A stretch of DNA of 64,000 nt. Origin: Gnetum montanum. Its lineage: Eukaryota; Plantae; Gnetophyta. The stretch's first letter is position 1; every line of letters starts with the position of its first letter. The translations under genes and the position numbers were made by a program. The stretch covers positions 1 through 64,000 of the forward strand of contig MNCI01000329.1 of assembly GCA_015680685.1 (NCBI GenBank), read 5' to 3'. The notes beneath the pieces are model-generated. The model searched no databases. It was given only the letters and a program-made list of their open reading frames with translations, and was not told where the DNA came from. This document shows, piece after piece, positions 34,611 through 57,033 of the stretch.

Positions 34611-34784
34611 CCTAAACCTTTGTGTCTCTTTAGTGTGTCATGGGTAATCCTACATGTTGTCCATACCTCTTCACCAGTAGCCTGTTAGTGTAGACGTGAC
34701 ACCCCTATGGTTGTCTATGCAATAGGTGGTGCATATTGGTCACCATGATGGTTCCTTTGGAACCCTATAGGATGAAAGCCCTAA

Positions 34785-35232: not shown

Positions 35233-38200
35233 ATGAATCCTGCTACCACTTCGGTTCCTACCGTGAGTTTGGAGGTGTCTCAGTTTGTTCCACACATGAT
35301 GGATCTTGAGAGACCACCTAGCCTAATGCAAGTATCGTGGTAGTCTCTTAGATTGTAGCATCAATTTCCCGAACGTCTGACTTAAGATGAAGAGCGATAT
35401 AACTTTTTATGTGTAAAATCCAAGCAAATCTACCATTGGACTATCATGAATTTGAGGAAAAATGTAACTTTAAGATCATTCATTAGAACAAAATGGAGTT
35501 CATTCCTATGTTTGATACCACTATCCCACTCATCGACACATGTCAATGGATTTTAAACCACCTTGTCCAATTAACTAGGTCAAGAGAATAGCACACAATG
35601 TCTCACTATGATGAACCTTTTCATGATGACCAAGATGAGTTAGACTCCCATTTTGAAGGTGGTGGCCCAATCTATGCTATGACTGTCTCTTCCACCTCTG
35701 TTGTTTGTTCACACCAATCACAATTTTTTGCCTCTTTTGCTACTTCCATGACATTGCTGCAACCTAGACCCTCTTTGCTGATGGGTAGTCATCAAATGTT
35801 GCCAACATATCAACATGCAAGCCCTTCAACCCCATTTCCCATTAACCATCCTTCCGAGTCTGTCCAAGCCCTGCATCCAACGTCTATGATGCCCACACTA
35901 CCATACGTGCACATCATGCCCACATCACAATCCCATGTAAGTTCTATTTCTATCCCCTCCTCTATACCCATTCCACCATTAGTAGCAAGCCCAACTTCAA
36001 CTACATGCTGGACAACAACGACCTCTTTTCCTGTGGCTCAAATGTCTCACATGCCACAATACACACAACCCCAAACATACCAAGTTTCACATGTAATGCA
36101 ACCAAACATGGGGCTATGGGACATCCCAAACATTGGGTAGATAACCATCCCCATAGTGCCATTGATGCTAGCCACTCCAGTGGCATTGCCCACTAGGTTG
36201 TGGGCTACTCAAACAACACCACTAGCAAGAGCTGTTTCGCCAACATCCTCAATGGGACTCGTAGCCTCACCAATAGTGCCAGTAGTAATGGTTGTTCCAG
36301 TAGCTTCACAACCTCCTATAACACCCTTGAGTCTATACCAAGCCTTTCAACTCATCTAGACACTCATCGTAAAAATTAAATGGCTCAAAGCTGCTAGTTC
36401 TAAAACCATTCAAGTCATGGACTTCTACCAAGATGACCTAATTAGTCTAATTTTTCCCATGCATATGTTGCCCCTTGGGGTACAACTTCCCCAGTTTACA
36501 AAATAAAATGGGAAAGGTGATCTAAATGCCCACCTAGTCACTTTCAAATCTGAATCCTTGTTACTATAACTATGGACCCATACCATGATTCATGTTTTTT
36601 CCATGTCCTTGATAGGCAAGGCCTTAGACTGGTACCGCGCACTTCCTTGCACTTATATCTCAACATTAGAAGAATTGCTAAGCTAGTTCATGACTTGTTT
36701 TAAGTATAACTTGAAGTTGGAAGTCAGTTTATATCAACTCATGAAAATTAAACAAGAACCATTAGAATCCATACAAAAATTCATACAATGTTGTAGTGCT
36801 ACCCTAAATGAAATAGATGAACTAATTACCAAGGCCCATTTGCTAGCTATTTTCAAAGGAGTAGTAGACGATTTTATCAAATCCAAACTATATTATTTGG
36901 CTCTGCATTCCCTTAGCCAAGCATTTGCTCAAACTAAAAGCATTCAAGATGCGATGAAGGCTACTAGAGATCTAGCCTACTTAGCCTATAAAAACACACA
37001 TACAAAGGAAGATAAGGAGAAAGGGAAGGCCACAACAACCATGGTGGCCACTGTGGCTAATGAGATCAAGTCCAACAATAGCAAACAGATAGCCACAACA
37101 CCTAAGCCTCCACTAACACAACACTCGGCCCCAGTAGCACTAGTTAGCCCCCAACATTAACACCCATAGTGCAAACTCTACCAAGGCCAAATTTTGAGTA
37201 CAAAGATCACTCAAAATATACCCTGTTACCAATTAAGCCTTTGGAGCTTCTAAGTCAATTGCTAGGAGCTAGGCATATCCAACATACATGGATGTTAGAG
37301 CAGGCCCTTAAGCATCACGAAAGGTACTGTGAAGTCCTTCTAGACCCCTCCTTGGCTATGCCTAATGAACCACCAGTACCCAGGAACTTCAGGCTAGAGC
37401 ATTTTTGTGATTATCATCAATTATGTTGCATGATATAGATTATTTCTTAGCATTGAAAGATGATATCCAACGAATGATCCATCAAGGTAAGTTGGTCTTG
37501 GATGAGAGCAGTCTTGTCCAACGTGAAAACCAATCAATGAATGTTTACATAGATCCTTTGAATGCTACCAATCTAGGTTACACTATTGATGTCATTGGCA
37601 TTGATGATGACACAAAATCACAACATGAATCATTCATGGTTCATGAAACCCCTTGCAATGCTAAAGCTTCAACAACAACTAGGTCAAAAACCCCTTTTGT
37701 TGTTAGGGTCTCTCCATAGACATCTGATGCACCTTTTTTACTTAAAATTACATCGCATCCCACTGCAAAAAAGCTTATTAAAACTATCATCCTATAATTC
37801 AAAAAAGCTTATTATCCAACCCAAAGTCACTCCCCCTTGGGAGATTTGTCTTCTAGGGCACAGAGAAGAAGAAAAAGTTAGCAAACAATTAGACAGTGGG
37901 AAAGACTTCCTAAATGCACTTTCATAGGTTAAATAGGCTTTGAAACAAAAGAACACAACATTAAGATTGTATGACTTAATAATGACCTCTACGGTGCATT
38001 GTGAGGCTTTTTTTTTGCATGTTAGCATCTATTTCTATTAGTGAAAACATTTCAACTAAAGAGAAAGCTATCCACACCATTATGCTTCCCTTTGTGGCTA
38101 AAGAATTGTGGCCAGTCCATTTAACATTTCATGACAAATCCATCAAAGATGATCCTAAAAATGGTCAAGTGACTACCACCTCAATGTTTATCATAATTCG

Positions 38201-38819
38201 GATATGTCAGTATAAGATTTGTAGAGTACACGTTGATGACGGGGCTGCCACCAATGTGATACCATTCCCCATAGTGGACAAGTTGGGCATGATGGATCAA
38301 ATCAAGCCCATAGCAACCTCATATTTAAAATCATTCAATGGGGCATGTGTCATGGTCAAGGGGACTATTACCATCAACTTCATAGTAGGGGACCATTTTT
38401 CCACTAGTGTAGTATTTATTTTGGTAGAAGAGATGCCCGAGTTTAACCTGATCTTGGGAAGATCATGGTTAGCCCAACTAAGAGTTGTCTCCTCACCCAT
38501 ACACCAAGAGATCTACTTACCCTACATGAGTGGAGAGGTGGTGATCTTTGTTAATGAAGTAGCTCCTCAAGCCATAAATAATATAGAGGTGGAGAAAGGA
38601 TCAGAGATAGAAATATCTGAAAACAAATCATCCATTCATGTTGAAATTCCATTTTTGACAAATGAGCCATCCAAAACTGTCAACTTAAATAAAGAAACCA
38701 TGTGGGCCGAATTTCCCTTCCAAACAATAGATGATAGCATAGAGGAATACCACCACAAGGCCTCCTGATCATATGCCTTGCTTAACCCACTTCAGATTAG
38801 GAAACAATTGCATGGTTAA
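35233..38819 (+). pseudogene. gag: E2 gag-protease
   Basis: Homologous to E1: SLIGKALDWYRALP, FCDYHQLC, CRVHVDDGAATNVIP, FNLILGRSWL. Ends RKQLHG*. Confidence 0.9.
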
Positions 38820-38854: not shown

Positions 38855-39075
38855 TATAGCCCAGAATGGCCTTAAACTATTACCACAGCCCACTAAGGCC
38901 TAAAACTAGCAACACCACTTTCGAAAAGCACCTTACACATAGCCAAAAATGGAATTAAAATACCAAAATGGCTTGCTAAGGCCTAAAATTAGCAACCCCA
39001 CTTTCGCATATTACTTCACATATGACCCAAAATGACCTAAAACTAGCAATGGCCCAAAATGGCCTTAGACTAGAG
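38855..39075 (+). repeat. GGCCTTAAACTAGC-type array after E2 protease
   Basis: About six degenerate units. Confidence 0.85.
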
Positions 39076-39224: not shown

Positions 39225-40940
39225 CTATGAGTCTCTGCTAGTATCTTTATCCCCCACCCCACTAGGTCCAACATCCTCATTTAGGTCCTGCATAAAGCAA
39301 GAATAAAATAATGAGTCAAATTATGATCACATATCATAAAATAAGCTACAATATAGTAAAGCTTGGCTAACATGAGATGGGCTTGCGTCCATCTCTGGAG
39401 GTATTCTATCCATTCCAGCTACTAAGCATCGAAGTATTTCATCCTTACTTAAGTTGTCCCAATCTTCTTCCCCTAGATCAACGCCTACTACAATTTTCCT
39501 CTTCTCCATAGCTATCCATGTGGGTGGTCCTAGAGAGAATGTGGTAGTAGTGGTCTCCCCAAAAGGCAAGGTCATCTCTCTCTTGGGAGATTCACTCACC
39601 ACCACATGTTTTATAAATTTTTCATAGGCCTTGGTAGCACCAATCACATTAAGAAATAGCTCATGAGTATGCAATTCAATAGAAGCATCTCGATATTTCT
39701 AATGGTAGGTAGCATGTTCTACCTTGTACATGTGCTTATGATTTTTTTGTGCCTACCCCCATTCATACACCTTGGCACTGTAATCTTTCTAGTCTTGGTT
39801 TTCTTGGGCTAGTAGATCCATTTGCAAGCATTGTTCAATTATTTTAGGGGTAGCACTATTTTTTCCTCGTATGGCCAACCAATATCTTGCATAATTGATT
39901 ATGGTCATACACCAACTATTTTTAAAGGTGTTGCAAGCCATCAAGATTTCATTTTATGACTACAAATCTTCTAACTCAATTGCTTGACTAGCTTTCTCCT
40001 TTTTAAGCTTCTAGACTTGCTTCTAGAGCTCTTCGTTAATGTGTCTACACTCACACAAGGATCATGCTGAGTATAGCACATATTTACTAGCCTCCTCATA
40101 TATGTCACAAGATACCTTGATTACCTCTAGGGGGAGTTTAGGCATAGCATTAATTTCAACTGTTTGTCTGGGATCGCACTTAATTCAAGAAGCTAAGATA
40201 TCAAACATGAGAAAGTGTCAATCACAAGATAATGGAAAAAATAGAATAATGCAAATAGTAAGTATTGTAGTCTAAACATGCCTATTTCGGGATCAATTTA
40301 CCTTAAGCGGTCAATTATATCATGAACTAACCCTTCCATAAGGGTAAATTTATCTGGGGTTTTTGCCCATGGTCGTAGGTGAAATGAGGAGGAAGATTCA
40401 AGAACCTTAGTAGCATTGTTTGCTGTGCAACAAAGGATGTTAACATTGTAAATAATAGGGAGAAGAAAGGAGGAAGTAATATAAATGACAGTGTCAAGCT
40501 CCTACCTAGCAAACCCTCAGGGGTGAGAGTAAGGGGATTGTCCATCAGTACATTGTCAAACAAAGCATCAAACTCACCAGCCCCAAACTATAGTCATTCT
40601 TCCTCAAGTTAAGTTAATAGTGTAACAGTGTCTTCAACATCATGTGCCCCTTAGGTGCTGGGGCACACTCTACGAAAGGTTCATTTGTAGAAGGAGCCTC
40701 TTCCTCTATGCAGGGGACCTCCTCCTCTGCAGTCCGAGCCTCTTCTTCTTCTATAGCAAGGGCCCCTACCTCTGGGATCAAAGCTTCTTCTTCTTCATCT
40801 ATTAAACACATCTAAAGTGAGCATTCTAGTCTAACATAAAAAGGGAAGGGTGGAGGGGTAGCTAACAAGACAATTAAACCATACATACCAATAAATGTAG
40901 GTTGTACTTTATGAAAGTTGAGTCGGTTGCTATATACCAA
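39225..40940 (-). pseudogene. E2 antisense accessory gene, 3' exons
   Basis: LFLNVIGATKAYEKF...SESPKREMTLP...WDNLSKDEILRCL matches E1 exon 6. PDKFTLMEGLVHDIIDRL matches E1 exon 5. Last intron 39371-39288 and last exon 39287-39225. Confidence 0.85.
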
Positions 40941-42365
40941 TAGTTAGAAAAATGCACCACTCCGAAGCTACAAGCTTGCTCTATCAAGGTGGATATAGTC
41001 AGTTGCATGGTGTGGTGGAGTGCAGAGATCTTGAGAGTAGCCAAGACATGTGGAGCAAAATGGGTTGTGCGCTTGGGTGTGGCCGTGGGCGTTGACCATG
41101 CAGAGATTCTACCAAGGTGGTAGAAAGGGAATGGAACAAAATGCCAATAGAAATTGCTAACTATTTGTAGTGTCAAACAGGAAGCTTATAATGCTTGATG
41201 TCACAACATGTCAAGAAGAGAGCTTGAGTGCTAGAGAGAGGAAAAGGCAAAGACTCCTTTAAATCTTTGAACTCTTCAAATGATGCTTGTTGAAAGAATT
41301 TGAACCCTTTGAATGTTATTTTTTGGAGAATTTCCAACAGCCAAAGTTAGTCCAACCCCTTTGAGCACTATTCATCAGGGTTTTTATAGGGCTAGAGGGC
41401 ACGCGAAAGGGGTGGTTTGGATGCCATGTGCCCTAGGCCCATGTTGACTTGCTGGCACCACATGTATCATGTATGACCATTGGACCGGCAAGACCATTGT
41501 AATGCGAACTTGCTATTCCATAATTGTGAGCTTTCCATGCCATAATTTTGCCATCAGCATCTAGAGATGTATGTCAACAGTCCAATTAGATGAAGTGCAT
41601 TGATTTTGTACAACCACTCACATGCTGCGCTGTGCTTTGTAGCGGAGCATGCTTGGTATGGCGTAGCACCTTATTGTACATTTCACTACATATGTGTTGC
41701 ATGCTTTCTATGCTATGCTATGCTACATAGCATACTGTAGCATAGCAACTGGCCTTAGCCATGAAAGCTTTGCCAATTTGCAAACTTTTCTTTCGTGAGA
41801 CTTGCAAACTTGCTGATTCCACCCTTTGAGCTACCTTTTGTCTTTTTCATAGGATTGCTACACCTTATTGCGCCTTGTAGCTTAGCATAGCATAGCAGTA
41901 GACATGGTCTATCACTTCCTGATTCAAAGGAACATTGCTAAAGGACTTAAAATTAGGCATGGGAATTGGCTGTGAAGCTTTTTCCAGGCTATGCTATGTC
42001 ACATGGCATAGTGTAGCGTAGCGCTCCATTCTGCAATTGTTTTCTGGAGCTTGCTATGCTACATAGTGAGGTGTAGCATAGAGTAGTAGACTTCATGACT
42101 TAGAAAACTTGCTAAACTATTTTTTACATCCAAAATGCTGTTGCCAACTCCACACGTCATTTCTAAGCAGGTTGTCAACTCGGCACGCTACTTAGGTGGA
42201 CAGGCAGGATGACCTGTAGAGCCTGTTTTCATCTAACGTAGAAAATTTGCCAAACTGGCTGGATTGAACTAAAAATGTTCTCCTCCTGAAGAACTACCAT
42301 GGTGCTGCGTGAATTGCAAGGCCTGGTGAAGCAAGGATGATCCTACATTTTTTTGGGGTGTTTCA
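40941..42365 (-). repeat. 3' LTR of E3 (last ~280 bp deleted)
   Basis: Matches 52888-54311. Minus-strand start TGAAACACCCC. Confidence 0.9.
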
Positions 42366-42399
42366 TTGGTCCTTCTTAGTCGACGTCTAGAGTACAGGC

Positions 42400-43310
42400 T
42401 TGATACAAGTCAAAAAAGAATAGAAAACACTGCAGCAAGCGAAATGCTAAGGTTATCACTTGGTGGGTGTTTAGACATCGCTCGACTACACTTGAGAGTG
42501 TTGCATTGGTTTTGCAGAGGTTAAGATAGAGAGCAAAGATGATGTTTAGTAGAGTCCCTCGTTGGAGTGCTCTGAGGGGCTCATTTTCATTTTCATCTTT
42601 GGCTGGTGTTGTTCTTCAACCTCTTGTAGGATAGGTATTTCCTTCATAGGATGAGTTGTGTTACATCCGTGAAGGATTTTGACCTACCTACAATTGCTTT
42701 CCATGTGGCGAGTTGCGTTGCACACATGTCATGGAATTTGCACTCTGAAGTAGCTAAGCTAGTTGAGGCACTCGCTTTGCGACACTGTAGAATTTGCTGC
42801 TGTTGCGAGATGTGCCCTTAGGGGCAAAGGTCTTGTTAGCTATGGGCATTGTTGAAGCTGTTAGACATCATTACTAGTGTACGATGTCCAAAGCAAGAAG
42901 GCCAATAGTGACCTTGATAGCATTAGCGCAGGGGAGCTAGTCTCTAAGGCACCAAGAGGTGCTGCGGGTGTAGATGCTCTGGAATCCCTGCTAGGGGCTT
43001 GCATTCCTATTTTAGCTATGGGATCAGTTGCCACATAGCTAACGTTGTGCAAGACCAAGCATTGGTAGGGAGTTGGAGTAACAACATCGTGGCTGGGCCA
43101 CAATACTGCTAGAACTCCAGATGTGGGAACTAGCCTAGGAACCATCGTTAGGATGATGGGCCATGGCGACGGTAGGTTTGAAGGGTGAGTGTGACACCAT
43201 ACGACATCTTTGGAGGGCCAACATGATGCCAAGGGTGGCGGCGCCACATATGTTCCAAACTACATTCTCAATGTGTTGTGAATTGTGTTCTAGAACTACA
43301 ATGTCCCACC
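42400..43310 (-). pseudogene. Decayed extra sense ORF in the E3 3' region
   Basis: ORF 42861-43247 frame is homologous to E2 ~60975-61120 with synonymous third-position changes. Confidence 0.5.
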
Positions 43311-43374
43311 CACATGTTATCATCACACCCAATCATTCAATATGTTACTGGTGCATGCTGGGGATGCGACGCAA

Positions 43375-43590
43375 ACCTAGTTTAAGCACCTAGTAGATCA
43401 TGTGTTGGTTTAAGGTCCCAGTGGACCGTTGTGCTAGTTTAAGGTCCCAGCGGACCGTACATGCTAGTTTAACATTGTAGCAAATGGCTATTGCCAGTTT
43501 AATGTCGTAGCGGATGTTGCTCGATGTCGCTAGTTTATCATCATTGCAAACGCTACTTGGTGCGATTACTAGTTTATTGTCATAGCGAAC
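43375..43590 (-). repeat. TAAACTAGC-type array after E3 integrase
   Basis: About seven ~30-bp units (plus strand GCTAGTTTAA). Confidence 0.85.
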
Positions 43591-43614
43591 GGTGCTTGTA
43601 GTTGCCATTGCATT

Positions 43615-46600
43615 TCAGATGTAGTACATCTTGAGATACGAGTGATTCACTAGGGTGGTGAACTTGTTGCCACTCATATCTGCCAGCTTGAAGGCTCCAT
43701 TCCCAAAGGCTTTAGTGACCACATAAGGACCTTCCCAGTTGGCTGAGAATTTGCTCACATGCTCACGGATGGCCTTGAGGATGAGGTCTCCCTTTTGCAC
43801 TGGCTGTCAATGTGGGTCTACACAGTGCTTTTGCTACTACTTGCTCTGGTAGTGCTCAATGTGTCTCAACGTTTGTGTGTGCTCCTCCTCCATTGAGTCA
43901 AGGTTGATGGTTTGCAAATCATTGTTCTAGGCTTCACTCATGACATTCACGAGGATCATCTGGAGTGAGGGTACCTGTAAGTCAAGAGGCAATAGAGCTT
44001 CAGATCCATAAACAAGACTATAAGGGGTCTTACACATTGTAGTTCTGCACGTTGTTCTGTAGGCCCAGATGACATAGAGGATTTTCTCGTGCCATTGTCT
44101 CTTGCTGTTGTTAAGCATTCACTTCAGCAAGTTGATGATAGACTTATTTGTAGCCTCCACCTACCCATTCGCCTGTAGATAGTAAGGGGAAGTAAATGAT
44201 TGTTTAATGGCTAGATTGCTATAGAAGGTTTGGGTTTTCGTGCTGCTGAACTGTGGTCCATTGTTGATCACAATAGTCATTGGAAGCTCAAACCTTGTTA
44301 CGATGTTGTCAAGGATGAAATGGTAGATTTGTTAAGACATTGTCTTCCTTAGGGGAATGGCTTCCACCCACTTGGTAAAATACTCAATGGTGGTAATAAT
44401 GAAGCTATGCCCCACTGAGGAGTTAGGTGTGATAGGTCCTATGAGGTCTAATCCCCATCGTTGGAAGGGCCACATGATTTGTGTTGGGTGTAGGTCTGTG
44501 GGCGAGACATGCATGAGATTTACATATCTCTAGCATGTTTCACATGTCTTAACTTTTGATAGGTAGTCATGTTCCATGTGGGGCCAGTAGTACCCTAGTC
44601 ATCTAATTTTGGTAGCCATAGTCTTGGGTGCTATGTGTCCACCACACAACCCCTCATGATGTACCTCATTAACTACCTTCTATGCTTGCTCGCCGCCCAC
44701 GCATGCTAGAAATATCCCATCGTAGGAGCATTGGCACAGGGCATCATTTCCCATGAGCATGTATTGTTGGGAATGCTTACGGATTGCATTTCTCTGGGCA
44801 AATGTCAATCCACCTGGGGGTTTTCTGTGCTGTAGATAGGTTTTAAAATTGGCATACCATTCTTGGGTATCTGCAGCACTGACAGATGCCATGTGTTTCA
44901 CCCAAGTGATAGGCTCTATGCATTCTATAATAGCAGTTGGCAGGTTTGCCAAGGAATGTGATGGAATGTTTAACGCAAGGGTAGCTAAGGCATCTACTAT
45001 GGTGTTCTCATTGCATGGCACGTGTTGCACATCCATCGTTACAAATTTCTTAAGTAAGATTTTTGATAGGTCGTAGTAGGGTTGCAGGTGCATAGCTTTG
45101 TAGGCATAAACCTTGGTGATTTGATTCATGACTAGTTGTGAATCTCTGCGGATCGCTAGGTGTTGTATGCATAGTGCTCAGGAAGTTAAGAGGCCTCTGA
45201 GTAGCCCCTTGTATTCTACCACGTTGTTGGTGCAAGGGAACATAAATCAATAAGCGGATGGATGTATTTCCCAGAGGAGAATGTGATTATGGTAATGATG
45301 CTACCTCCTTGAGTGGTTGAGGTGCCATCAAAATGTAAGGTGGCTTTGAAATGAAATGGGACGATGTTGACATTGCCAGCGTACTCGTCCGGGAATTCAG
45401 GGTCTATGGTTGCTTGTTCATCGACTAGTGATGTCATGAGTTGGGTCACTATGGATTGACCCTTTGTCGATGATTGACTTACATAGCGTAGATCAAACTC
45501 TGTGGTTATTGTCTTCCATTGGGCTATCCTACTACTTTTGTATAAGTTGTTGGTGATAGCCCAGAGTATATTGCTTTTGCAAATGGTGTTGGTTGTACTA
45601 TAGAATAGGTAATGCCGCCACTTCTTTATTGCGAATACTAACGCTAGGAAATTCCTCTTCACTTCATTGTATTTTTCCTCGTGCGCTATTAGCACATGAC
45701 TCAGATAATACACTGGTATCTCAGAACCGTCGTCTTGTTTCTGACAGAGCAGTGTTGCAATAGATGTGTCAGAAGTGATGAGGTAGATGAAGAAGGGTTT
45801 ATCCCTTTCTAGTAGATGCATAGTCAGGAGGTGTAAGAGTTCCTTCTTGAAGTCATCAAAGGCTTGTTGACATTGAGTTGTCCATTCAAAGTTAACCCCC
45901 TTCTTCAGAAGATGTTGCATGGGGTGTAACTTGTCAATCAACCTTGCGATAAACCTTCGAATGAATTGCACTCTACCTTTCAAACCACGTAACTCCTTAA
46001 GGTTTTTGGGAGGCGCTAGGTTGATGATGGCCTTAACTTTGTCAGGGTCCACCCGTAGTCCAGCCTCTGATACTATGAACCCTAACATGCATCCATTTTC
46101 ACCCCGAAGATGCACTTCTTAGGATTGAGGAATAAGTCGTGCATTTGGCAGCATTTGAGGACTACCCCTAGATCACGTGGGTGATCAGATGCCTCCTTGG
46201 ACTTGATTGTTATATCATCCATGTAGTTGTTTAATGTTTCTATGATGTAATCACTAAAAATCTAAGTCATGGCTCGCTAGTAAGTTGCTCCAGCATTCTT
46301 GAGCCCGAAGGGCATCATGGTGTAGTAGAAGGTTCCCCATAGGGTCATGAAGGTTGTGGAAAACTAGTGCTCTGGATTAATGCAGATTTGGTTGTACCTA
46401 GAGAAACCATCCATGAAGGATAGCAGATCATGGCTAGCCATGGTGTTGATCATTTGATCAATGCTTGGTAGTGGGAAGTCATCCTTGATTGTTGCCTTGT
46501 TCAAGTCCCAGAAGTCTATACAGATCTGTATTCCTCCCTTTTTCATTGAAACTATGATGATGTTGGACACCCACTCTAAATAGTCAACTGTGTGGATGAA

Positions 46601-47086
46601 ACTTGCTTGATATAGCTTATTGATTTCATCCCTCATGACTAGTGCTATTTCTGGCTTAGCTTTGCGAGCCTTCTGCTTGACTTCCTTCATGTGTTGGTCT
46701 AGGACGATGTTATGCTAAATCAGCCGTGGATCCAGACCTGGCATGTCTCTATACAAACATGCGAAGACATTGATGTTTTCTTGCAGAATCTTGGCTACAT
46801 TTTTATGCATTTTTGTGTCTAGGAGGGAGCTGAGTTTCAATGTCTTCTCCTCCCCCGTTAACATGGTCACAAGTGTCTCGACGAGAGGGTCCTCAGTTAC
46901 ATCCCCGGCCTCTATGTCTAGAGCTTGGACTAGATTCATGGGCTAATCCAGGGATGCTTCGAAGGCTGCTATAGTGATAATTGTGGTCGACCCCTAGTCA
47001 ATCATGTTCAGGTTCAACTATTCTGTGAGCTTGCTCTGTGGCCCTGCTAATGTTAAAGGTGTGGAAAGGTCATGATGGATTCCCAT
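43615..47086 (-). pseudogene. pol: E3 pol: RT, RNase H, archaeal-type RNase H, integrase
   Basis: DLNKATIKDDFPLP, SFMDGFSRYNQI, MPFGLKNAGAT, YMDD; PVYYLSH; LHFDG (aRH); WPFQRWGLDLIGPI, YFTKWVEAIPL, WEGPYVV. Confidence 0.95.
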
Positions 47087-47329
47087 CTCTTGCTCGACCT
47101 ATCATCATAAGATGAAAGCCCAGTTAAGAGGCATTTGTCAGTAGAGATTGTGTGTAACGAAAATTTGTAAAGTAGTGATGAGATGCAACTTGTGAAGTGT
47201 GTCGATGTAAAGATTGCAAGTTTTTCTATTTAAGGTCATGGTGGACTGCCAAGGCATAGGAGCATAAAACTGCTAAAGGTGTAAAAATACTAACATAAAG
47301 TATGATGTTGTGTGACTTTCAATATGCAA

Positions 47330-47900
47330 ATGCCAAACTGCTAGTTTAGTGTCATTTTGGACTACCAAATTGTGACATGCAAAATCTTAACATGCAAAAT
47401 AATAGTATGTGAAACGAGAAACTTTGAGTATGAGAAGTGCTGACCGTTAATGTGAAAATATGAACTGCAGACATGAAGTCACAAAACCAATAGAAATGGT
47501 GACATCGCCCATGTGGAAGAAGATGCGAAAACCACTAATGTAAGCATGCAATGTTGTTAGTTTAACATCATTATAGACCAAAAAATGTAACAGGTCAAAA
47601 ATTCTAGTTTAGGATTTTTTCATACTGTTAGAGGTGCAACTATGCTAGGATTACTAGTTTAAGGTCTTTTCGAATCATTGCTAGTTTTAGGCCATTTCGG
47701 GCCATTGCGTCAAATGGCAAAAGGATTATATATTAGCAAAGTCAAAAGAAAAAATGCTAGTTTCAGGCCATTTTGGGCCATTTCCAAAAGAGATAGTACT
47801 TTAACAAAGAAAAAAAGCGATGATGTTAGTTTTAGGCCATTTTGGGCCATAACAAAGCAGAAAGCAATGATGCTAGTTTTATGCCATTTCGGGCTATACC
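47330..47900 (-). repeat. GGCCTAAAACTAGC-type array in the E3 PR-RT spacer
   Basis: Plus-strand GCTAGTTTTAGGCCATTT-like units at ~47340, 47655, 47680, 47756, 47826 and 47872. Confidence 0.8.
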
Positions 47901-47981
47901 GTAGCATGCCATAAGGATGGCATGTTAACAAAGAAAAGAAGTGGTGAAGCACAAGGGATGGCAACTGGGCAGGAAGCTTTA

Positions 47982-50900
47982 GGATGCTACACTATGCGTA
48001 GCTACCTCTTGACTTGTCATGGGTTGATCGAGATGTGAGGCCAAGGTATTTCACCAAGGCCCTCGTTCACATCATCATCCTCTATTTGAAAGGGCAACTC
48101 AACCCATGATTTTTTGATCTAGGAGTCAGCTCACTGAGCCAATCCTTCCATTGGATGGTTAATGCATGCATGAGCAGGTGCCTCCCTTTTGGGGGTCGTG
48201 ACCTCCAAGCCTTGCTCCATGTCTACGTTACTGATTACTTGCATCACTACCTCATCACCATGGATCACCACCTCCCTGCCTGCATATGGTAAGTGGATTT
48301 CCTGGTGTATATATGAGAAGAAAACCCTAAGTTGTGCTAACCATGACCTTTCCAAGATTAGGTTAACCCCAAGCATTTCCTCAACCATGATGAAAGTTGC
48401 ATCTATGGGGGAACATGTCCCCTGCTAGGAAGTTTATGTGAACTGTGCCTTTCACCAAGATGTGTACCCCGTTGAAGGACCTTAGACATGACATCACCAT
48501 GGGTTTGACCTGGTCGACCAATCCCAACTTTTCTACAATAGGGAAGGGAATGACATTTGTGGCGGCCCCATCATCAACGTGTACCCTTCAAATCTGGTGT
48601 TGGCCGACCTGAATTGTGATGAAGAGAGGCACCGTGGTCACCTGACCTCCTTCGAGATCTTCCCTAATGGCATCGTCATGGAAATTCAATTGAGGTGTCA
48701 TGGAATCCATGGGTACAGAGGGAAGCATGACCGAATGGATCACTTTCTCCTTTACTGGCATGTTCTCGTAGATCGGAACCACTATTAACATGCAGATTAG
48801 AGCCTCACGGTGGGGCACAGATGTCATGATTAGGTCATACAAGTTTAGTGTAGCATTTTTCTACTTTAGAGCTTGATTGACCTGGGTGAGGGCATCTAGA
48901 AATTCTTAGTCATCCCCTTGTTTGACACCTTCCTCCTTTTTGATTCGTCCTAGGAGACAAATCTCCCGAGAAGAGGTGACTTCAGATCTGGGTTCAGATC
49001 CTTGTTGGCAGGGTGATGCATGTTGCATAGTCATGTCGACCTTCGTCTTTGGTGGCGAAGGTGCAGATGCAAGGGGTGAAGATGTGGGCTTGGGGATACC
49101 CTTGACAGTACTTCCCTTCGACGTCTCACCCACCAAGTGGACTTCTCACCTTGTGGGATGAGGAGGTTGTTTAGCTTTGTTAGGCAAGATAGGGGCCATT
49201 GAAGGTGTTGGCCTCCTGATGACGAATGGAGCTAGAGGTGTTAATTGATGGGACCATGTGGCTCCATCAATAGGTGACACAAAGGTGGATGCCTATGGTG
49301 GGACTTTTAGGATGAATGACTATTGCGAGCTTGGACCAGCTGCTAGTAGTGCTGGTGCACGACGCTGAGGCACGCAAACCACGAATGGTTGCCAAGGTGG
49401 CCTAGGATCATTGTCAATTCCAATGGCATTGATTACCTAACAAAAATTGTTGACATTAAGGGGGTCTATGTAGAAATACATAGATTGGTTTTCAGGGTGC
49501 ACTGGGTTGCTTTTGTCCAGCACCAGTTTCGCCAGGTCAACTAATCTTTGGATGTCGTCCTGCAATGATAGACAATAATCCATGTTGTGACCACACTGTT
49601 GGTGGTAGTCACAAAACCTGTCTAGCCTGAAAAACCTAGGAATCAGAGGCTCATTGGGCAAGGCCAAAGAGAGATTTTTAAGGAGCTCATAGTAGTGTTG
49701 ATGTCTCATGTTTTCCTCTTCTAACATTTGCTTATGCTGGATGTATCCCGCTACTAGCAGTTACTTCAGAAGCTTTGAAGGCTTTAGAGGTAGTGGGGTG
49801 TACTTTGAGCGGTCTTTGTGCTCAATGTTGGGTTTAGGGTGTGCAGATGTCTTGGGCATATGTGCAACCGATTGCAGCATGTGGTCCTGTTTGGGGTTAG
49901 TCGTGGGTATGGCCAATTTCTTGTTGTTCTTTATACCACTGTTACTAGGTTTGGGCTTGGCCTCAGTTGCCACAATAGCCATTATGGTTGTTGGGGCTTT
50001 ATCCTTGTCGTTCTTTGCAAAGGTGCTTTTGTAAGAGACGTAGGCTAGGTTTTTGCTCGTTTCATCCGTGTCCTGTATGCTCTTAGTCTGAGCGAAGGCC
50101 TGACTAAAAGAGCAAGGAGTGAGGTAGTACAGTTTAGACTTGATGAAGTTATTCATTGTGCCTTTAAAGACGGCCAGTAGGTGGGCTTCCACGATGGGCT
50201 CATAGAATTCATTAAGGGTTGCACTTCAAAATTGAATGAACTTTTGGACCAGCTCTAGAGCATCTTGCTTTATGCTCATCAACTAGTCCAGCATGGTTTC
50301 TAGCTTCAAGTTGTACTTGAAGTACATCATGAACTAGGTCAACAGCTCTTCCAAAGTTGATATGGATGAGCGTGGCAATGCACGATACCAATCCAAGGCT
50401 TTTCCCACTAGGAACATGGTGAAGACATGAATGATTATGTGTAGCCATTGTTACAATAGCAAAGACTCAGATTTGAAGGTGACAAGATGTGCATTGGGAT
50501 CTCCCTCCCCATTGTAGTTTGTGAAATGTGGGAGAGACATCCTTGGGGGTAAAGTCAAAGTAGGGACTACAGGGTTGATAGGTTCATCCTTGTAGAAGTC
50601 CACAACTTGTACCATGTCAAACCCAGCAGCCTTGAGGCATTTTATTTCCTCAATGAGGGTCTGGATGAGCTGAAATGCTTGGTCCAGACCCGACAACGTT
50701 GTGGATGATCGAGGCACTGCAGGGGTAGTTCCCACTTGTGGTATGGTGGGGGTAGTGGCCTGACCCATTGGCGGTACCATTGGGATTACCCCTACAGGCA
50801 GTACTGCCTACATTGTCCACCACTCGATAGGTGGTGTTGTTAAGGTGGCAACCGTAGGTTGGACTACCCGGTAGACTGCTTGTGTCATCGATAACGTAGA

Positions 50901-51797
50901 CCATAATCCCATGTTAGGCTATCCTAACTACGAGGCTTGGTGCATTTGAGAGGGCATGTAGTGAGACATTTGCGATGCTTGCGGAATGGGTGAAGGAACA
51001 AATGGGGCCCACCATGTGGATGGGATGGGGCCCACCATAGTGGGTGGAACGAATGTGAATGTAGGAATAGAAACAAAAGTCATGTATGCTTGTGAAAGAG
51101 GCATGGTATGAACATGTGGTAGGGTAGCCACGATTGACGTACGATATGCTACAGGAATAGACTGTTGAGTAGTTAGCAAAGGGATAGTAGTTGCAGGCGA
51201 AAGAGGGTGTTGAAACATCATAGAATTAGCATGACTACCCATAGCAGCTGTAATCATGGGTTGTGGGAGCATGGGAATAATTACAAAGGGAGTGGTAACA
51301 GATGATGGCTTGGCCTAGAAGGACCAGGTAGGAGGGACAGGAACGGGGCCGGTTGGATCTCCCTCATTTGATTGGGAATTGAGTTTCTCTTGCCTATCCT
51401 GGAAAGCATCATCTTGGTTGGATGCTATGTCATGTTGCTCCCTAAGCCTAGGCAACTGGATTAGTTGGTCTAGAAGCCTTTGGTACACTTGTGGTAAAGG
51501 TAACGAAATGCCGGGAATAGGGATAAATTCCTTCCCATTGCAGTAAGCGAACTCGAAGCTACATTTCTCTTCGAGTTTGTGTAAATCCAAGGGCAGATTT
51601 GCTTGCACCTTTGCACAAAGGAAACTGTAATGCTCATGTTGCTGGGCCAATCCCTCAAGCCCTCGATTTTGGACTCTGAGAGATCGATGTGTTCCTAGAA
51701 TCGGATTCAATGGTTTTTCAGCACTAGTAGTGCCTTGAACCATGATGGGAGCTTCAACATTAAATAAGTTGGTAGTAGTAGTTGAAAAATCCATCAT
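47982..51797 (-). pseudogene. gag: E3 gag-protease
   Basis: NYNGEGDPNAHLVTFKSESLLL, FCDYHQQCGHNMDYC, RVHVDDGAATNVIP, NLILERSWLAQL. Confidence 0.9.
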
Positions 51798-51887
51798 TAA
51801 ACAAGTAGTTATGCAAAAAAGTGCAAAAGTTATGCAAAAGAGTGCTAGCAAACAAGGAAATTGGAAGACAACAAAAAAGAAAGAAGA

Positions 51888-52490
51888 AGAGGAAGGCTTT
51901 ACATCTTGCTAGATTCCGAAGGAACCGTCGAGGCGAACGACCTGCACCACACAAGTCATAAACAACTAGAAATGGGTGTTGCATTTACGTTAGTATGTGA
52001 TAGGGTGCAGAACACGTGCAAGACTACCATAAGAATGGAAAGCTAGTTAGCAACCAAGAAGGCTTTGCATCTCATAGGATCCTGAAGGGACCATCGAAGT
52101 GACCATCCTATACCATGCAAGATGGGGTATGGAACACATGTAAGAAAACCAGAAGGTGGGCAAGCTAACTAATGGTCAGGAAGGCTTTGCATCTCGTAGG
52201 ATCCCCGAGGGACCGTCGAAGTGACTGTCCTGTACCACGCGAGATGGGGTACAGAACACATGCACGACAACAGTAAGGCGGGCAAGCTAACTGGCAATCA
52301 AATGCTTTGTGTCTTGTAGGATTCCAGAGGGACTGTTGAAGAGACCATCCTGTAGCACACGAGATGGGGTACAAAATACATGCAAGAAAACTATAGGAAT
52401 GAGCTAGTTAGCTAGCAATCGGAGGCCTTGTGTTCTGTAGGGCTCCCAAGGAATCGTCAAGGTGACTGATCTGCACCACACAAAGTGCAA
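51888..52490 (-). repeat. Five copies of a ~120-bp leader repeat in the E3 5' UTR
   Basis: Units start near 51890, 52057, 52178, 52300 and 52420. Confidence 0.9.
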
Positions 52491-52584
52491 ACAACCACAA
52501 AATGATGTCGCATCTATGCTTATGCATATTAGGATGTAGAAGGCTCATAGAACTACCATGACATGTGGAAAAGGCACCAAAAGG

Positions 52585-52601
52585 CCCTCCTTCTAGTGCC
52601 A
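52585..52601 (-). promoter_or_regulatory. PBS tRNA-Asn (E3)
   Basis: Plus-strand CCCTCCTTCTAGTGCCA. Confidence 0.9.
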
Positions 52602-52607
52602 GAAAAC

Positions 52608-54311
52608 TATGAAGACCAAAAACATCGATAGCTAGAAAACACTGAGGGCCTGGTGGGCATGACAATTTTGACCTCATACCTGCGGGAGGGCCATGCTAGG
52701 TGTGTGTGGATACGGGGTGCCCTGAACAGTCTAGTTGATCAAATAGGGACTTAATCGGTGTCTATATAGCCTTTTGCAACGTATAGTTTGGAAACAGAAA
52801 TGAAAGCACGAAGTAATGCTTGAGAGTAAATAAAGCAGGAAAAGTAGTGCAAAAAATGCAACAATAAGCAGGAAAGAAGATAAAGTATAGTTATAAAAAT
52901 ACACCACTTCGAAGCTACAAGCTTGCTCTACCAAGGTGGATACAATCAGTTACATGGTGTGGTGGATTGCAGAGATCCCAAGAGTAACTAAGACGTGTGG
53001 AGTAAAACGGGTTGTGTGCTTGGGTGTGGCCATGGGTGCTGACCATGTAGAGATTCTACCAAGGTGGTAGAAAGGAAGTGGAACAAAATGCCAACCAAAA
53101 TTGCTAATTGTTTGTAGTGTCAAATAGGAAGCTTACAATGTTTGATGTCACAACGTGCCGAGAAGAGAGCTTAAGTGCCAGAGAGAGAAAAAGTTGAAGA
53201 CTCCGGAAAATCTTTGAACTCTTTGAATGCTGCTTGTTGGAAGAATTTGAACCCTTTGAATGCCATTTTCCAGAGAATTTCCAACAACCAAAGATAGTCC
53301 AACCCCTTTGAGTGCTTCTCATTAGGGTGTTTATAGGGCTAGAGGGCATGTGAAAGGGGCAGTTTGGATGCCATCTGTCCTGGGCCCACGTTGACTTGCT
53401 GGCACCACACGTATCATCTATGACGGTTGGACCAGAAGATTGTTGTAATTCGAACCTACTATGACATAACTATGAGCCTACCACACCGTAATTGCACTAT
53501 CAGTGTCTGGAGACATGTGCCAACGGTCCAATTAGGTGAAGTGCATTGATTTTTCACAACCACCCGCATGCCTCGTTGTGCTTTGTAGAGAAGCATGCTT
53601 GGCATGGCATAGCACGTTTTCATGCATTTCACTACATATGTGTTGCATGTTTGCTATGCTATGCTACGATATATAGCGTAGTGTAGCATAGCAATTGGCC
53701 TTAGTAACGAAAGCTTTTCCAATTTGCAAACTTTTCTTTCCTGAGACTTGCAAACTTGCTGATTCCACCCTTTGAGCTACCTTCTATCTTTTCTGTAGGA
53801 TTGCTATGCCTTGCTATGCCTTGTAGCTTAGCGTAGCATAGTAGCAGACATGGTCCATCACTTCTTGATGGAAAGGGACATTGCTGAAGGACTTAAAATT
53901 GGGCATGGGGACTGGCTGTGAAGTTGTTGCCATGCTACGCTACGTCACGTGGCGTAGCGTAGTGTAGCGGTCCATTCTATAATTATCTTCTGAAGCTTGC
54001 TACGCTACATAGCGAGGCGTAGCATAGCGTAGCAGACTTCATGACTTAAAAAACTTGTCAAACTATTTCGTGCATCTAGAATGCTATTTCCAACTCTATG
54101 CGTAATTTCTAAGAAGGTTGTCGGCTTGGCACACTACTTGGGTGGATAGGTAGGATGACCCGTAGAGCTTGTTTTCACCTAAAGTAGAAAATTTTCTGAA
54201 CTAGCCGGACTGAACTCAGAATGTTCTCCTCCTGAAGAACTACCATGGTGCTGCACGAATTGCAAGGCCTCATGAAGCAAGGATGATCCCACATTTTTTT
54301 GGGATGTTTCA
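52608..54311 (-). repeat. 5' LTR of E3
   Basis: Minus strand TGAAACATCCC...CTTCATA. Direct repeat of 40941-42365. Confidence 0.9.
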
Positions 54312-55398
54312 CATCTTTGTAGTTGGAATACTTGGATTTATTGCTAAAAATAGGTCCATGAGCCTAGCCTCCTAGACATTCTGAACAAGGGTGGCTAGGG
54401 ATCCATCGCATAATCAGCATTATGTCTTGTCCACTTCACTATATTGAAATAAGAGGTTAGTTTCATCATGTCCTAATGTGATTACCATAACCTTTGTAGA
54501 GTTGGCCACCACTGCATTAATCAAAAGATAAAAACAAAACCAATTAATTGATCAATCAAAGGCATATGAAAATACATACAGAACCTAACTCACCTAGTGC
54601 AAATAGTGTGGGAAATGATGTGCTCTTCACTAGAACCTCTTCCATGGTAGGTACATGGTGGGATACCCATTTTCCATCCAACCATCCAAGTTCTCCACAC
54701 TTTAGATAAAACATAGTATATTTGGTTGAGTAGGTTTTGAAATGGGTCCCAAGCTATTCTATGACACTGGCCTGCATGTTCTTAGCAGAAGAGAACTCCT
54801 GTAAGGCTATTTGGGCCAATGCGAATGTCGCCTCTTTATTGTGAAGAACGTCCTCATCGATTATGAACTTGGCAACATAATAGATCATAATAAGCATTTC
54901 AACTATGCAAGAAAAACAATACAATAGGTCTAACTATCTTCATAGGACTCACCCACTAGCACAGTAGATGGTCCTAGGTGGATTCTAGAAGAAAGTGCCC
55001 ATGTGGTGTGTGAGAAACAAGGTTTTGTGTTTATGGTAACATTTAAATTCAAGAATGGCCTAAATCAAAGAAAAATGTCTCAATCCTTTTGGATGTTGAT
55101 TTGAGCCCCCTACGCCTTCACCTTCAACAGACCCATCAACCATAAATTTTAAGATGCCTCAGTTTTCCCCAAGCAATAATGTTTCAACCAAAACATTGGT
55201 TGTCTCAGTTGACAAGTGTGACCATACCATCACACTGAAATGGAAAAGGAGGAATTCTAGGAATTCCTACACGCCTTCTCAAAACTAGATCACCTAGTCC
55301 CTTGCGTGTGAGGAGGGGGAACATTGGTCACAGGGGTACTTAGGTAGCACAAAACCCCTACCAGCTTAATCATAATCAAGATGGGTTTTAACATGATC
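54312..55398 (-). pseudogene. E2 antisense accessory gene, 5' exons (NIF-like domain and start of PMD-like exon)
   Basis: ATG 55394: MLKPILIMIKLVGVLC...EFLEFLLFHFSVMVWS...NPPRTIYCASG|GTGAG (donor 54952). Exon 2 ends SFPTLFAL|GTGAG (donor 54593). Acceptor 54512, then ...LMDLFLA. Confidence 0.8.
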
Positions 55399-56369
55399 CT
55401 GCATGGTGTAGCACAAAGCATTAGTTCATAGTATTCAAGTGAAAGTTATTGTATAGCGTAGTAGCTCCTAGTATGCAAATTTTTCCTAAGTATGAAATGT
55501 TATGTCCTCAGACCGGTTATGTCAAGTATCAGTTCCACTTTCATGACTTGAACTGTATAGCATAGTAGCTGCATTACGTGTAGCATAGCAAGGTGGCGTG
55601 GGGCATAGCATAGCAGGTACACCCTGCACAACATAGTAGCTACATTACATGTAGAGTAGCGTAGAGGGTGTACCTTGTGCAATGTAATGACTGTGTCATG
55701 TGCAGCATAATAACTACACCCTTGCGTAGCATGATGGTTGCATAATGCATAGCGTAGCAACATAACAGTGTAGTGTAATAGCCCCTAGCCCTATCCTGTT
55801 GCATGGAATGTAACAAAAGTTAACTAGAACTCCCTCAATGGGTGTTACACTACCTAGAACACATGCTATGCTACCCAAGATGCATGCTACACTACCCAGA
55901 ACATGTGGTATGCCATGTGGTCTCAAAATGATACATGTGGTCTCACCCATAACAATGGTAGCCATGGTAGTGGCATGTAATAACCACAACGTAGCAGCAA
56001 TGGTGGCAGTTGAGGCCATAAAAACAAAATTCACAACATAGCAATGGTAATGATTGCAACCACCAAGGTGTGGTGATTACCGTAATAGCCCCATTTAATA
56101 GATTGCACAATGTAAGAAAGGGTAGCATAGCAACCTACTAGGTAGATGGTGCCTCCTGTCATTCCTCAATGCGTGCTCTAAGGAGACATCATAAGGCATG
56201 CTCCCCTTCATCTATGTTAGTGATCCCTTAATGTCTGCGCTCACTCCTGCATGCCATTACCTTGACATCAAACTTGTCTCTGTCAAACACTATGCTACAA
56301 CTGCTACACTACATTTCTATCTGAACTATGCTACACTCTAGTTAGTTAGCTCTAATAGTGAAAATGACA

Positions 56370-56570
56370 GGATTACCATGGGTAATCCCCTATTTATAGC
56401 TTATAGGGTTACAACACTTGTTACTTTTCAGGACCTTCCATGTCCCATGCATAACATGGGACATCCCACATCTTGCACGTAACATGGAATGAACTTGTTT
56501 CCTATAGCATAGCATGGGACATCCCATGTCCACTACTACGTAGCACATAGCTACAGCGTAGCATGTAAAT
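56370..56570 (-). promoter_or_regulatory. Putative antisense promoter of the accessory gene
   Basis: Minus-strand GCTATAAATAGGGG (TATA 56398-56391) with upstream CATGGGACATCCCA(T/C) near-palindromes. Confidence 0.5.
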
Positions 56571-56599
56571 ACACCAAAATTTTCACCTTATTTTTATAA

Positions 56600-56925: not shown

Positions 56926-57033
56926 TGTGACATTGCATAATCACCTTGCATATATTTCATCACATGTTGCTCTATTAAGCAAGTATCACTTAATTTCTAT
57001 TTGTTTTGCTTATTTTGCAGGAGTGCTTCAAAA

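Follow-up and report, generated by a model that had tools for sequence, protein, structure and literature searches.

The window analysed here, a whole stretch of 64,000 nucleotides (positions 1 to 64,000 of contig MNCI01000329.1 of Gnetum montanum), contains three nested Tat-type Ty3/gypsy elements, called E1, E2 and E3. E1 and E2 share a homologous minus-strand gene with at least seven exons, referred to below as the antisense gene. The features are:

22806-24268, plus strand: 5′ LTR of E1 (TG...CA), with a PBS-like motif after it, common to E2 and E3
24600-28376, plus strand: gag-protease region of E1, broken, with a stop directly past the protease
28604-28833, plus strand: short 27-nt-type repeat array of E1, past the protease
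29021-32571, minus strand: antisense gene of E1, ~1,015 codons with 4 stops, 5′ end lost at ~32576; exons 1-3 at ~32571-32258, 32187-31888 (acceptor ambiguous) and 31789-30746, exons 4-7 at 30652-30431 (donor uncertain), 30354-30226, 30148-29331 and 29254-29021
32576-34506, plus strand: 5′ LTR of E2, first ~300 nt missing, adjoining exon 1 of the E1 gene, PBS-like motif next
35592-38818, plus strand: gag-protease region of E2, broken
38868-39072, plus strand: repeat array of E2, PR side of the spacer
39225-40939, minus strand: 3′ part of the E2 antisense gene; exon 3 remnant 40939-40889, exon 4 from 40798, exons 5-7 at 40422-40282, 40192-39372 and 39287-39225
40940-54311, minus strand: E3, a third Tat-type family, inside exon 3 of the E2 gene; LTRs at 54311-52694 and 42365-40940 (3′ LTR without its last ~190 nt), interior with gag-PR, a 1.1 kb PR-RT spacer with repeats but without the gene, and RT-RH-aRH-INT
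54312-55397, minus strand: 5′ part of the E2 antisense gene; exon 1 at 55266-54953 (may begin at an acceptor near 55398), exon 2 at 54902-54594, start of exon 3 at 54511-54312
55398-56570, minus strand: upstream region of the E2 antisense gene, a putative promoter with a TATA-like motif near 56400
56577-56933, plus strand: repeat array of E2, RT side of the spacer, same short motif
57021-60506, plus strand: pol of E2 (RT-RH-aRH-INT), broken, with a pyrimidine tract and AG (57019-57020) just before
60552-60860, plus strand: repeat array of E2 past the integrase
62318-63056, plus strand: polypurine tract and start of the 3′ LTR of E2 (TG at 62334)

The LTR traits of Tat-type elements are present, namely TG...CA LTRs, PBS and PPT, with two of the LTRs truncated. 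The gag-PR and pol regions of E2 lie on one strand inside an LTR pair, the 5′ LTR being 84.8% identical to 62641-63056 over 396 nt, and the likeness ends at 63056. No second LTR of E1 was found in the window. The K2P distances are 0.172 for the E2 pair and 0.173 for the E3 pair. The PR-RT-RH-INT order with an additional RNase H is present in E3 (Pfam matches RT_RNaseH_2 at E 2e-23, then RVT_3 at E 1e-7); the pol of E2 is colinear with it at 66.9% nucleotide identity, and in the window E1 is without pol. The E1 protease matches Asp_protease_2 at E 0.11, which is under the cut-off, and is 59% identical in amino acids to that of E2. The gag-PR regions of the three elements are about equidistant (66–69% at the nucleotide level), and the nearest RH proteins to these elements are 32–52% identical. 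The RH-aRH-INT order is described for many land-plant groups in the available text of PMC10508981. The stretch 39225-55398 (~16 kb), which the preliminary description treated as the second gene copy, is largely E3, unrelated to the antisense gene.

All four intron starts quoted earlier for E2 are indeed present on the minus strand, at 54952 (GTGAGT), 54593 (GTGAGT), 40888 (GTATGT) and 39371 (GTTAGC), and the matching starts in E1 are 32257, 31887, 30745 and 29330. The preliminary description held that these donors fall at equivalent codons, which is the case for donors 1, 2 and 6, where codon and phase are the same (exon alignments at z 21.8, 14.2 and 38.5 relative to shuffles). For the KPPP/PTFI pair, the phase is shared (1) and the next acceptor is exactly equivalent, but no alignment is obtained for the 16 preceding codons (z 1.3), as E2 has lost most of exon 3: E3 is inserted at 54311 and the deletion took ~265 of the 347 codons. 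The pairing of these two donors is plausible. Acceptors 3 and 5 and donor 5, which is GC in E2, are exactly equivalent in the two copies, while acceptor 2 is one codon off and acceptor 4 four codons off. Donor 4 of E2 was not found, and exon 7 gives no alignment between E1 and E2 (z −0.4 relative to shuffles). The end of exon 1 is in phase 2 in E1 and E2 alike, the frame being set by codon-position identities of 0.56/0.65/0.30, and this conflicts with the best-placed intron 1 acceptors, which are in phase 1 in both E1 and E2. The occurrence in E2 of GT at three of four anchored donors and AG at both exactly anchored acceptors has a chance probability of 2e-6, a rough, post hoc figure. The introns are 50–153 nt long, T-rich and 59–77% A+T, with GT-AG signals. 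As claimed earlier, they are unalignable while the exons align, since none of the six intron pairs scores better than shuffles (z −1.4 to 1.5). This adds little, however, because synonymous sites are saturated too. The minus-strand frame over E1 exons 3 and 6 has no stops, compared to 8–24 in the five other frames. A third copy of the gene was not found within the window, E3 included.

The exon peptides of E1 and E2 are 27–45% identical, with codon-position identities of, for example, 0.55/0.70/0.31. Over 561 aligned codons, pN is 0.396 and pS 0.861, and pN/pS is 0.41–0.52 (bootstrap). The corrected dN is 0.56, and since dS is saturated no point value of dN/dS is given. The purifying selection proposed previously is thereby supported, and the minus-strand frame appears to have been constrained for a long time. 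Both gene copies in the window are dead, the aligned E2 frames containing 18 stop codons. Within the family of E1, 19 of 65 scored variants are synonymous where 19.9 are expected (p 0.64), i.e. there is no signal of selection; this count is based on 72 distinct best-supported variant rows (40 of 873 plus 40 of 235 rows), with 7 outside scored codons dropped. These rows are mostly sites at which E1 differs from nearly all its relatives, and thus likely reflect the decay of E1 itself.

In E2, the antisense gene is located between the protease and the reverse transcriptase. This position is absent from the preliminary description. A non-coding PR-RT spacer with stop codons measures 1.1 kb in E3 and 4.8 kb in E2 without E3, and the short repeat that fills it in E3 brackets the gene in E2. 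The pol homology of E2 and E3 begins in both at an AG behind a pyrimidine tract, the AG of E2 matching the one at the same place in E3 (47099), with phases that differ by one base. Close to the PR end, E1 and E2 have candidate GT donors, none of them in phase and common to E1, E2 and E3. The upstream region of the E2 gene has no homology elsewhere in the window. It should be stressed that the PR-gene-RT layout is seen in one copy, E2, as E1 ends before any RT. Moreover, E3 has spread without the antisense gene, which is therefore not essential in cis.

DNA data contain many relatives of the E1 gene, and these are transcribed, mostly on one strand. One DNA run, X2, labelled as another species, has 28,332 contig records on the gene, and of 22 listed runs, 9, belonging to 4 studies, contain part of the gene; the run search returned no RNA run among the listed runs that contain it. 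The RNA evidence comes from relatives, as no RNA reads are 99% alike to E1. First mates on the plus strand account for 91%, 72% and 84% of the depth in runs X12, X13 and X14, respectively, and for 46% in X15. Under the usual protocol, the bias in X12–X14 corresponds to minus-strand RNA; if the protocol was reversed, it would be the element's own sense RNA. One contig of X18 skips a net 77 nt at 30149-30233, which is exactly intron 5 (30225-30149). The claim of a spliced gene is therefore backed by a single contig for one of the six introns, the joined form being seen in this one, presumably RNA, run. Reads of relatives also cease to match at two predicted junctions, the donor of intron 1 and the acceptor of intron 2, where they have loose ends. 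In contrast, splice joints were found in none of the five raw-read RNA runs, where reads at introns 1, 2 and 5 are unspliced, and run X21 gave no match.

With a probability of roughly 0.6, we consider E1 and E2 to be dead members of two Tat-type families, distant from each other, which have in common a seven-exon antisense gene, located between PR and RT in E2 and likely accessory. This reading builds on the homology of the copies, the constrained minus-strand frame, the equivalent junctions, the position in E2, the relatives in DNA and the strand-biased RNA of relatives. The carriage within a retrotransposon lineage suggested earlier is supported by the finding of the gene at the same position and in the same orientation behind gag-PR in two families, and by the records in X2. 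The opposition to a one-off capture was, on the other hand, a false one: the simplest origin is that the gene was captured a single time and then retained for long.

One alternative is that the gene is a genuine accessory gene of the elements but E2 is a chimera: the gene would normally be located at the 3′ side of non-autonomous elements with gag-PR only, as E1 looks, and RT-INT (57-60.5 kb) would stem from another copy through recombination or deletion. The absence of pol from E1 in the window, the E1 gene running into an LTR, the two deletions at LTR junctions, which show that rearrangement took place here, and the usual Tat layout with antisense ORFs beside the 3′ LTR all fit this scenario. 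However, the LTR beside E1 belongs to E2, with its own PBS-like motif and gag, and matches 62641-63056 and not the E1 5′ LTR. In addition, spacer repeats are found to either side of the E2 gene, and E3 has a match to the pol acceptor. The chimera is thus unlikely. Another option is that a separate DNA transposon or a captured host gene entered the spacer twice, or once late, so that the constraint is older than the stay in the retrotransposon. The presence of introns suggests an origin at the DNA level, the gene has diverged more (in terms of dN) than gag (0.40) and PR (0.27), and E3 lacks the gene while its gag-PR is about as far from E1 and E2 as these are from each other. Nevertheless, the same place and orientation right behind the PR-side repeats in both families, the absence of any transposase family match and the finding that none of 15 inverted-repeat pairs of at least 40 nt bracket either gene make this scenario quite improbable.

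For the reading with a shared accessory gene, a mechanism can be proposed. Based on the sequence, the E2 spacer looks like the intron of Ogre elements, which lies between Gag-PR and pol (available text of PMC4408406 and PMC12786077). The stop past gag-PR, the non-coding spacer, the acceptor-like site before RT, the RH-aRH-INT order and the large size are common features. The extra ORFs of Ogre, in contrast, are 5′ and in sense orientation, and the available parts of the same papers mention no gene inside the Ogre intron; splicing of the spacer is here a prediction. The spacer would thus be an intron of the element RNA, its removal yielding Gag-PR-Pol and ridding the pol message of the 4.8 kb passenger. 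Reverse transcription would act on the unspliced full-length RNA, such that the passenger gene is copied. Its own introns are reversed on the element RNA and would remain unspliced before copying, and so survive. The antisense gene would be read from its own putative promoter at the RT side and be spliced in the normal way.

The homologue searches with the protein gave no relatives. For exon 3, none of 1,709 candidate proteins of near length is homologous, nor is any of 183 longer proteins compared to residues 35-250, the latter being weak evidence. Exon 6 has no homologue among 1.84 billion representatives. Among PDB sequences, exon 6 has one chance match (E 1.5) and exon 3 none, while the 106 and 42 pattern matches of the metagenome scans gave no confirmed case. 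No Pfam family reaches the cut-off; TRP28 (PF04195) and PMD (PF10536) are absent in 10 pieces at E 10, and the plant mobile domain/DUF1985 HMM gives no match even at E 10. Structure prediction from a single sequence for exon 3 and from two rows for exon 6 gave pLDDT of 34 and 36, with all residues below 50. A language-model atlas places exon 3 next to Streptophyta proteins (0.91) and to clusters with DUF1985 and PMD (0.88, i.e. below 0.9, with PMD on only 18% of that cluster), while the best score for exon 6 is 0.87, with a recognition of 1335, which is uninformative. There is also what we take to be a loose motif likeness to PMD/DUF1985 proteins. Kinship with the plant mobile domain is thus suggested by these model scores only as a lead. 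The group comprises PMD (PF10536) and DUF1985 (PF09331), including the Gypsy-encoded PMD-A and the host MAIN/MAIL1; according to the available text of PMC5418596, it is Gypsy-borne in Tat, and the host PMD proteins act in silencing. The antisense-gene protein differs from this group in the missing HMM match.

The protein could have a central helical domain distantly akin to PMD/DUF1985, plus the acidic tail. It may then be a nuclear chromatin or transcription helper that likely favours expression of its own family or escape from silencing, although we regard this role as tentative, with the odds somewhat against it. A more far-reaching and doubtful reading is that a widespread Tat lineage of non-flowering plants uses the PR-RT intron as a cargo bay, in which a six-intron antisense gene, kept since before synonymous saturation, encodes a 1,000-residue orphan protein binding to, or acting at, the repeat arrays of the element against host silencing, as a family-specific anti-silencing gene with an exon-intron structure of its own. 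We have also considered genuine exons whose product is not nuclear but works at membranes, as an envelope-like or movement-type protein. Exon 3 does have a hydrophobic 19-residue stretch (Kyte-Doolittle 1.99), and for the extra ORFs of Tat elements the available literature excerpts discuss env-like roles, but the stretch is single and marginal, exon 6 is charged and helical, the tail is acidic and the atlas neighbours are of PMD/DUF1985 type, making this very improbable. Finally, the possibility that the pattern of exons and introns arises artefactually from ordinary similarity between related elements, which could draw on the one unaligned donor of four, the intron 1 phase conflict and the mostly unspliced reads, is largely refuted by a third-position divergence far above that of the first two, the unalignable T-rich introns, the junction match and the one exact splice.

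Antisense genes are found in other LTR retroelements, HBZ of HTLV-1 being one. As in the present case, brtn of Boty (Botrytis) is an antisense accessory gene of such an element (cited in the available text of PMC8365987, PMC4227169 and PMC7264820). Both brtn and HBZ are spliced; they differ from the present gene in being 3′ of pol, in their small proteins and in belonging to other kingdoms.

Antisense extra ORFs of Tat elements are already known. Antisense PMD ORFs are among them, and the aORF-3R/eORF-3′R class includes Grande gene23, RIRE2, the Retand TRP28 ORFs and the PMD ORF of the gymnosperm Tat lineage III (parts of PMC7264820, PMC11963269, PMC4408406 and PMC6317226). For the Grande ORF, an own antisense promoter is reported in the available excerpts. 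The Tat-type host, the antisense orientation, the nearby tandem repeats, the conservation across families and the unknown function are shared with the gene studied here. Those ORFs, however, have their place past pol and before the 3′ LTR, or else 5′ of gag, and the available excerpts present them as ORFs, whereas the present gene lies between PR and RT in E2, has six introns and ~1,000 codons, and does not match TRP28 or PMD. The word "intron" does not occur in the available text of PMC7264820 and PMC11963269, and plant LTR retrotransposons are generally without introns according to that of PMC12786077. In the literature searched, neither the PR-RT position with six introns nor any other antisense or multi-exon PR-RT gene is reported; a 2011 survey of extra ORFs may bear on this. 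Surveys of extra genes, as described in part of PMC6317226, sought single ORFs of at least 250 codons upstream of the region for the polyprotein or downstream of it, a design that would overlook an antisense gene of several exons lying between PR and RT. Should this layout prove to hold across the genome, it would constitute a new site for a large gene in a retroelement at no cost to pol expression, explain how introns survive reverse transcription, and provide an abundant, transcribed and testable candidate for the role of accessory protein in Tat elements.

A multi-exon gene with introns is carried on the minus strand of two element families of the window, has been under constraint in them, and lies between protease (PR) and reverse transcriptase (RT) in one of the two. 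The DNA itself is eukaryotic, CpG-poor and rich in repeats, with zero N. Self-comparison of the window, combined with translation and Pfam, yields three Ty3/gypsy elements, called E1, E2 and E3:

22806-24268, plus strand: 5' LTR of E1
up to ~28376, plus strand: gag-PR of E1, next to which short tandem repeats follow
~32576, minus strand: truncation point of the E1 minus-strand gene
~32576-34506, plus strand: 5' LTR of E2
35.6-38.8 kb, plus strand: gag-PR of E2, then repeats
39225-55.4 kb, minus strand: minus-strand gene of E2, then repeats
57021-60506, plus strand: pol of E2, then repeats
62334, plus strand: start of the 3' LTR of E2, with the PPT
54311-40940, minus strand: E3, inserted within E2

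According to Pfam, the domain order of E3 is RNase H, second RNase H and integrase (INT), and self-comparison and translation show the pol of E2 to be colinear with it. An additional RNase H is given as the marker of the Tat clade (PMC6317226), and the order RNase H-additional RNase H-integrase is reported for most land-plant groups, ferns and several gymnosperms included (PMC10508981). Taken with the protein atlas, this points to a plant as the source; that it is a non-flowering one is a guess, prompted by the scarcity of close proteins (the best match found has 52% identity). Since the gag-PR regions of E1, E2 and E3 are nearly equidistant (66-69% at the nucleotide level), the elements belong to three families. 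The K2P divergences of the LTR pairs, 0.172 for E2 (396 nt) and 0.173 for E3 (1,425 nt), are as expected if E2 were a single element, slightly older than its guest E3.

At the insertion edges 32576 and 40940, one LTR end has been lost and the flanking host-element DNA is gone too, so that no target-site duplication is readable there. Further to the left, an older LTR element occupies 7488-19112 (LTRs ~7488-8308 and 18315-19112, 75%), and this in turn contains another, bounded by LTRs at 9936-10701 and 15418-16181 (88%), which has little coding sequence apart from a protease-like ORF (12584-12913). An A+T-rich dispersed repeat is present in three diverged copies (71-79%) at 2088-2452, 5292-5571 and 6487-6898. 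At the right end, similarity to the E2 5' LTR stops abruptly at the start of 63057-64000, and what follows probably stems from a further insertion; near 63165-63224 the leader motif has an inverted match of 60 nt.

The homology of the two gene copies was examined exon by exon. With the E1 frames as tblastn queries the E2 exons are recovered, with E values down to 1.6e-53, and codon alignments of E1 against E2 were scored against shuffles.

Identity of E1 and E2 exons, numbered in gene direction, with z relative to shuffles
Exon 1: 104 codons, 37%, z 21.8
Exon 2: 27%, z 14.2
Exon 3, start: 27%, z 8.7
Exon 4: 36%, z 4.2
Exon 5: 45%, z 13.8
Exon 6: 272 codons, 39%, z 38.5

Aligned position and phase are identical in the two copies for four donors (1, 2, 5, 6; donor 5 of E2 is GC) and for two acceptors (3, 5), while acceptors 2 and 4 are offset by one and four codons, respectively, with the phase kept. 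The preliminary description, which had the same exon-intron structure in both copies, is thus borne out for most exons and junctions, but no E1-E2 alignment is obtained for exon 7 (z −0.4) or for the tail of exon 3 (z 1.3), and a search for donor 4 in E2 found none. Of its four donor pairs at equivalent codons, those at donors 1, 2 and 6 agree in position and phase, whereas the KPPP/PTFI pairing, at the unaligned exon-3 tail, agrees in phase only and is plausible. Its statement that the introns are unalignable holds, as none of the six intron pairs exceeds shuffles.

The donor of intron 1 is in phase 2 in both copies, but the best-placed acceptors are in phase 1. Reads of relatives retain a strong donor at this intron, and in 47 of 72 reads (2 starts) the first part of exon 2 differs by an indel of one base. 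E3 is inserted in exon 3 of E2, where a deletion has removed ~265 codons of the exon and, along with them, the 3' LTR end of E3.

Over 561 codons of exons 1, 2, 5, 6 and the start of exon 3 (exon 4, the exon-3 tail and exon 7 being omitted for poor alignment), pN is 0.396 and pS 0.861 between E1 and E2, with pN/pS of 0.41-0.52, a corrected dN of 0.56 and saturated dS. In the controls, where pS is saturated throughout, dN is 0.27 for PR and 0.40 for gag (E1 vs E2) and 0.14 for RNase H (E2 vs E3). By these comparisons, constraint has acted on the gene for as long as on gag-PR, although the gene evolves faster. Exons 3 and 6 of E1 each have a single open frame on the minus strand. The purifying selection suggested earlier is supported by pN below pS, but not by the read tables, in which the synonymous share of the 65 scorable variant rows is no higher than chance. 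Both copies are dead, E1 with 4 stops and a missing 5' end, and E2 with 18 stops in the aligned frames, the large deletion and the insertion.

Relatives of the gene were sought in sequencing runs with the E1 gene as the reference. The E1 gene is partly present in 9 of the 22 listed runs, from 4 studies; eight of these carry four organism labels and have 0.20-0.42 of words in common, and the window may derive from the best-matching one. In the DNA run X2, labelled as a different species, 28,332 contig records match the gene, mostly 90-95% alike, and none of five joints equals a predicted intron. Five raw RNA runs contain 461, 87, 38, 172 and 40 matching reads. None of these is 99% alike to E1, so the transcripts appear to come from relatives rather than from E1. 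First mates on the plus strand make up 91%, 72% and 84% of the depth in X12, X13 and X14, and 46% in X15 (X16 was left out of this tally). If the usual protocol was followed, the RNA of the relatives would be minus-strand; under a reversed one, it would be sense RNA of the elements. The RNA depth of X12 peaks (~50) at 32000-32370, with unspliced intron-1 reads, many of them from few starts, which may reflect expression of a single relative or the place where a transcript ends.

No splice joints are listed in the five raw-read RNA runs. Loose read ends occur at the donor of intron 1, at the acceptor of intron 2 and within intron 5; these reads are unspliced, with an exon side that matches E1 and differing intron letters. 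X18 consists of contigs that are possibly RNA. Of its three joints, one leaves out a net 77 nt at 30149-30233 and so corresponds exactly to intron 5 in length and place. Another we read as an unspliced, diverged intron 5, and the remaining one spans intron 4 without a clear splice.

As to the position of the gene, which the preliminary description overlooked, the PR-RT spacer of E3 is 1.1 kb long and contains no gene trace, while that of E2 is 4.8 kb without E3 and holds the gene between two clusters of a short repeat motif. All three elements have this motif behind PR, and E2 and E3 have it at two further places, before RT and behind INT:

28604-28833, 38868-39072, 56577-56933, 60552-60860, 47885-47353 and 43581-43446, in element orientation: short repeat motif
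24269-24290, 34507-34525 and 52693-52675: PBS-like motif after the 5' LTRs

E1 is truncated and gives no confirmation of the order PR-gene-RT, so the layout is known from E2 alone. The pol homology of E2 and E3 starts at an AG after a pyrimidine tract, and by analogy with Ogre elements, which are reported to have an intron between Gag-PR and pol (PMC4408406), we infer that the spacer would be an intron of the element RNA; no in-phase donor common to the elements was found for it. The short repeat motif is conserved across three families whose remaining non-coding DNA hardly aligns, and possibly acts in cis as a signal, be it for splicing, for packaging or for the binding of a protein. Some 170 nt across the LTR end and leader are likewise conserved in E1, E2 and E3, alongside the PBS-like motif. 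The 3' untranslated parts of E2 (60900-62330) and E3 (43400-42365) are similar in patches, with no clear reading frame, and family-specific tandem arrays occur in the E3 and E2 leaders and an LTR (51999-52479, 34783-35052 and 32811-33503; units of 122, 90 and ~207 nt).

In the proposed mechanism, unspliced element RNA would be copied with the gene carried along, its introns probably being unseen by the spliceosome on that strand; retrotransposition reporters are described as exploiting the same strand principle in reverse (PMC12786077). Splicing of the spacer would release pol from the passenger gene, which may be transcribed from a promoter at 55.4-56.5 kb. The simplest history is one old capture from a DNA source, with retention and a loss in E3, although the order of gain and loss cannot be fixed because the three families are equidistant.

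The E1 product has ~1,015 codons, the start missing, with acidic stretches encoded by exons 4 and 7. Pfam gave no family at the cut-off, sequence searches no homologues, metagenome scans for the locus no match, and structure prediction no usable fold. In the protein atlas exon 3 adjoins unnamed Streptophyta proteins (0.91), with DUF1985 and plant mobile domain (PMD) clusters as leads (0.88), and exon 6 gives nothing. Antisense PMD ORFs are reported in Tat elements of gymnosperms and angiosperms, and host PMD proteins are described as working in silencing (PMC5418596). On these three points we tentatively favour a nuclear chromatin or transcription helper; any targeting of the flanking repeats by it is speculative.

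The minus-strand gene is real. In the freely available main texts searched, a multi-intron antisense gene in plant elements was not met, nor was an antisense gene between PR and RT. Extra ORFs in antisense are a well-known feature of Tat elements, and the available accounts place them between pol and the 3' LTR (PMC7264820, PMC11963269, PMC4408406, PMC6317226), whereas the E2 gene lies in the PR-RT interval.
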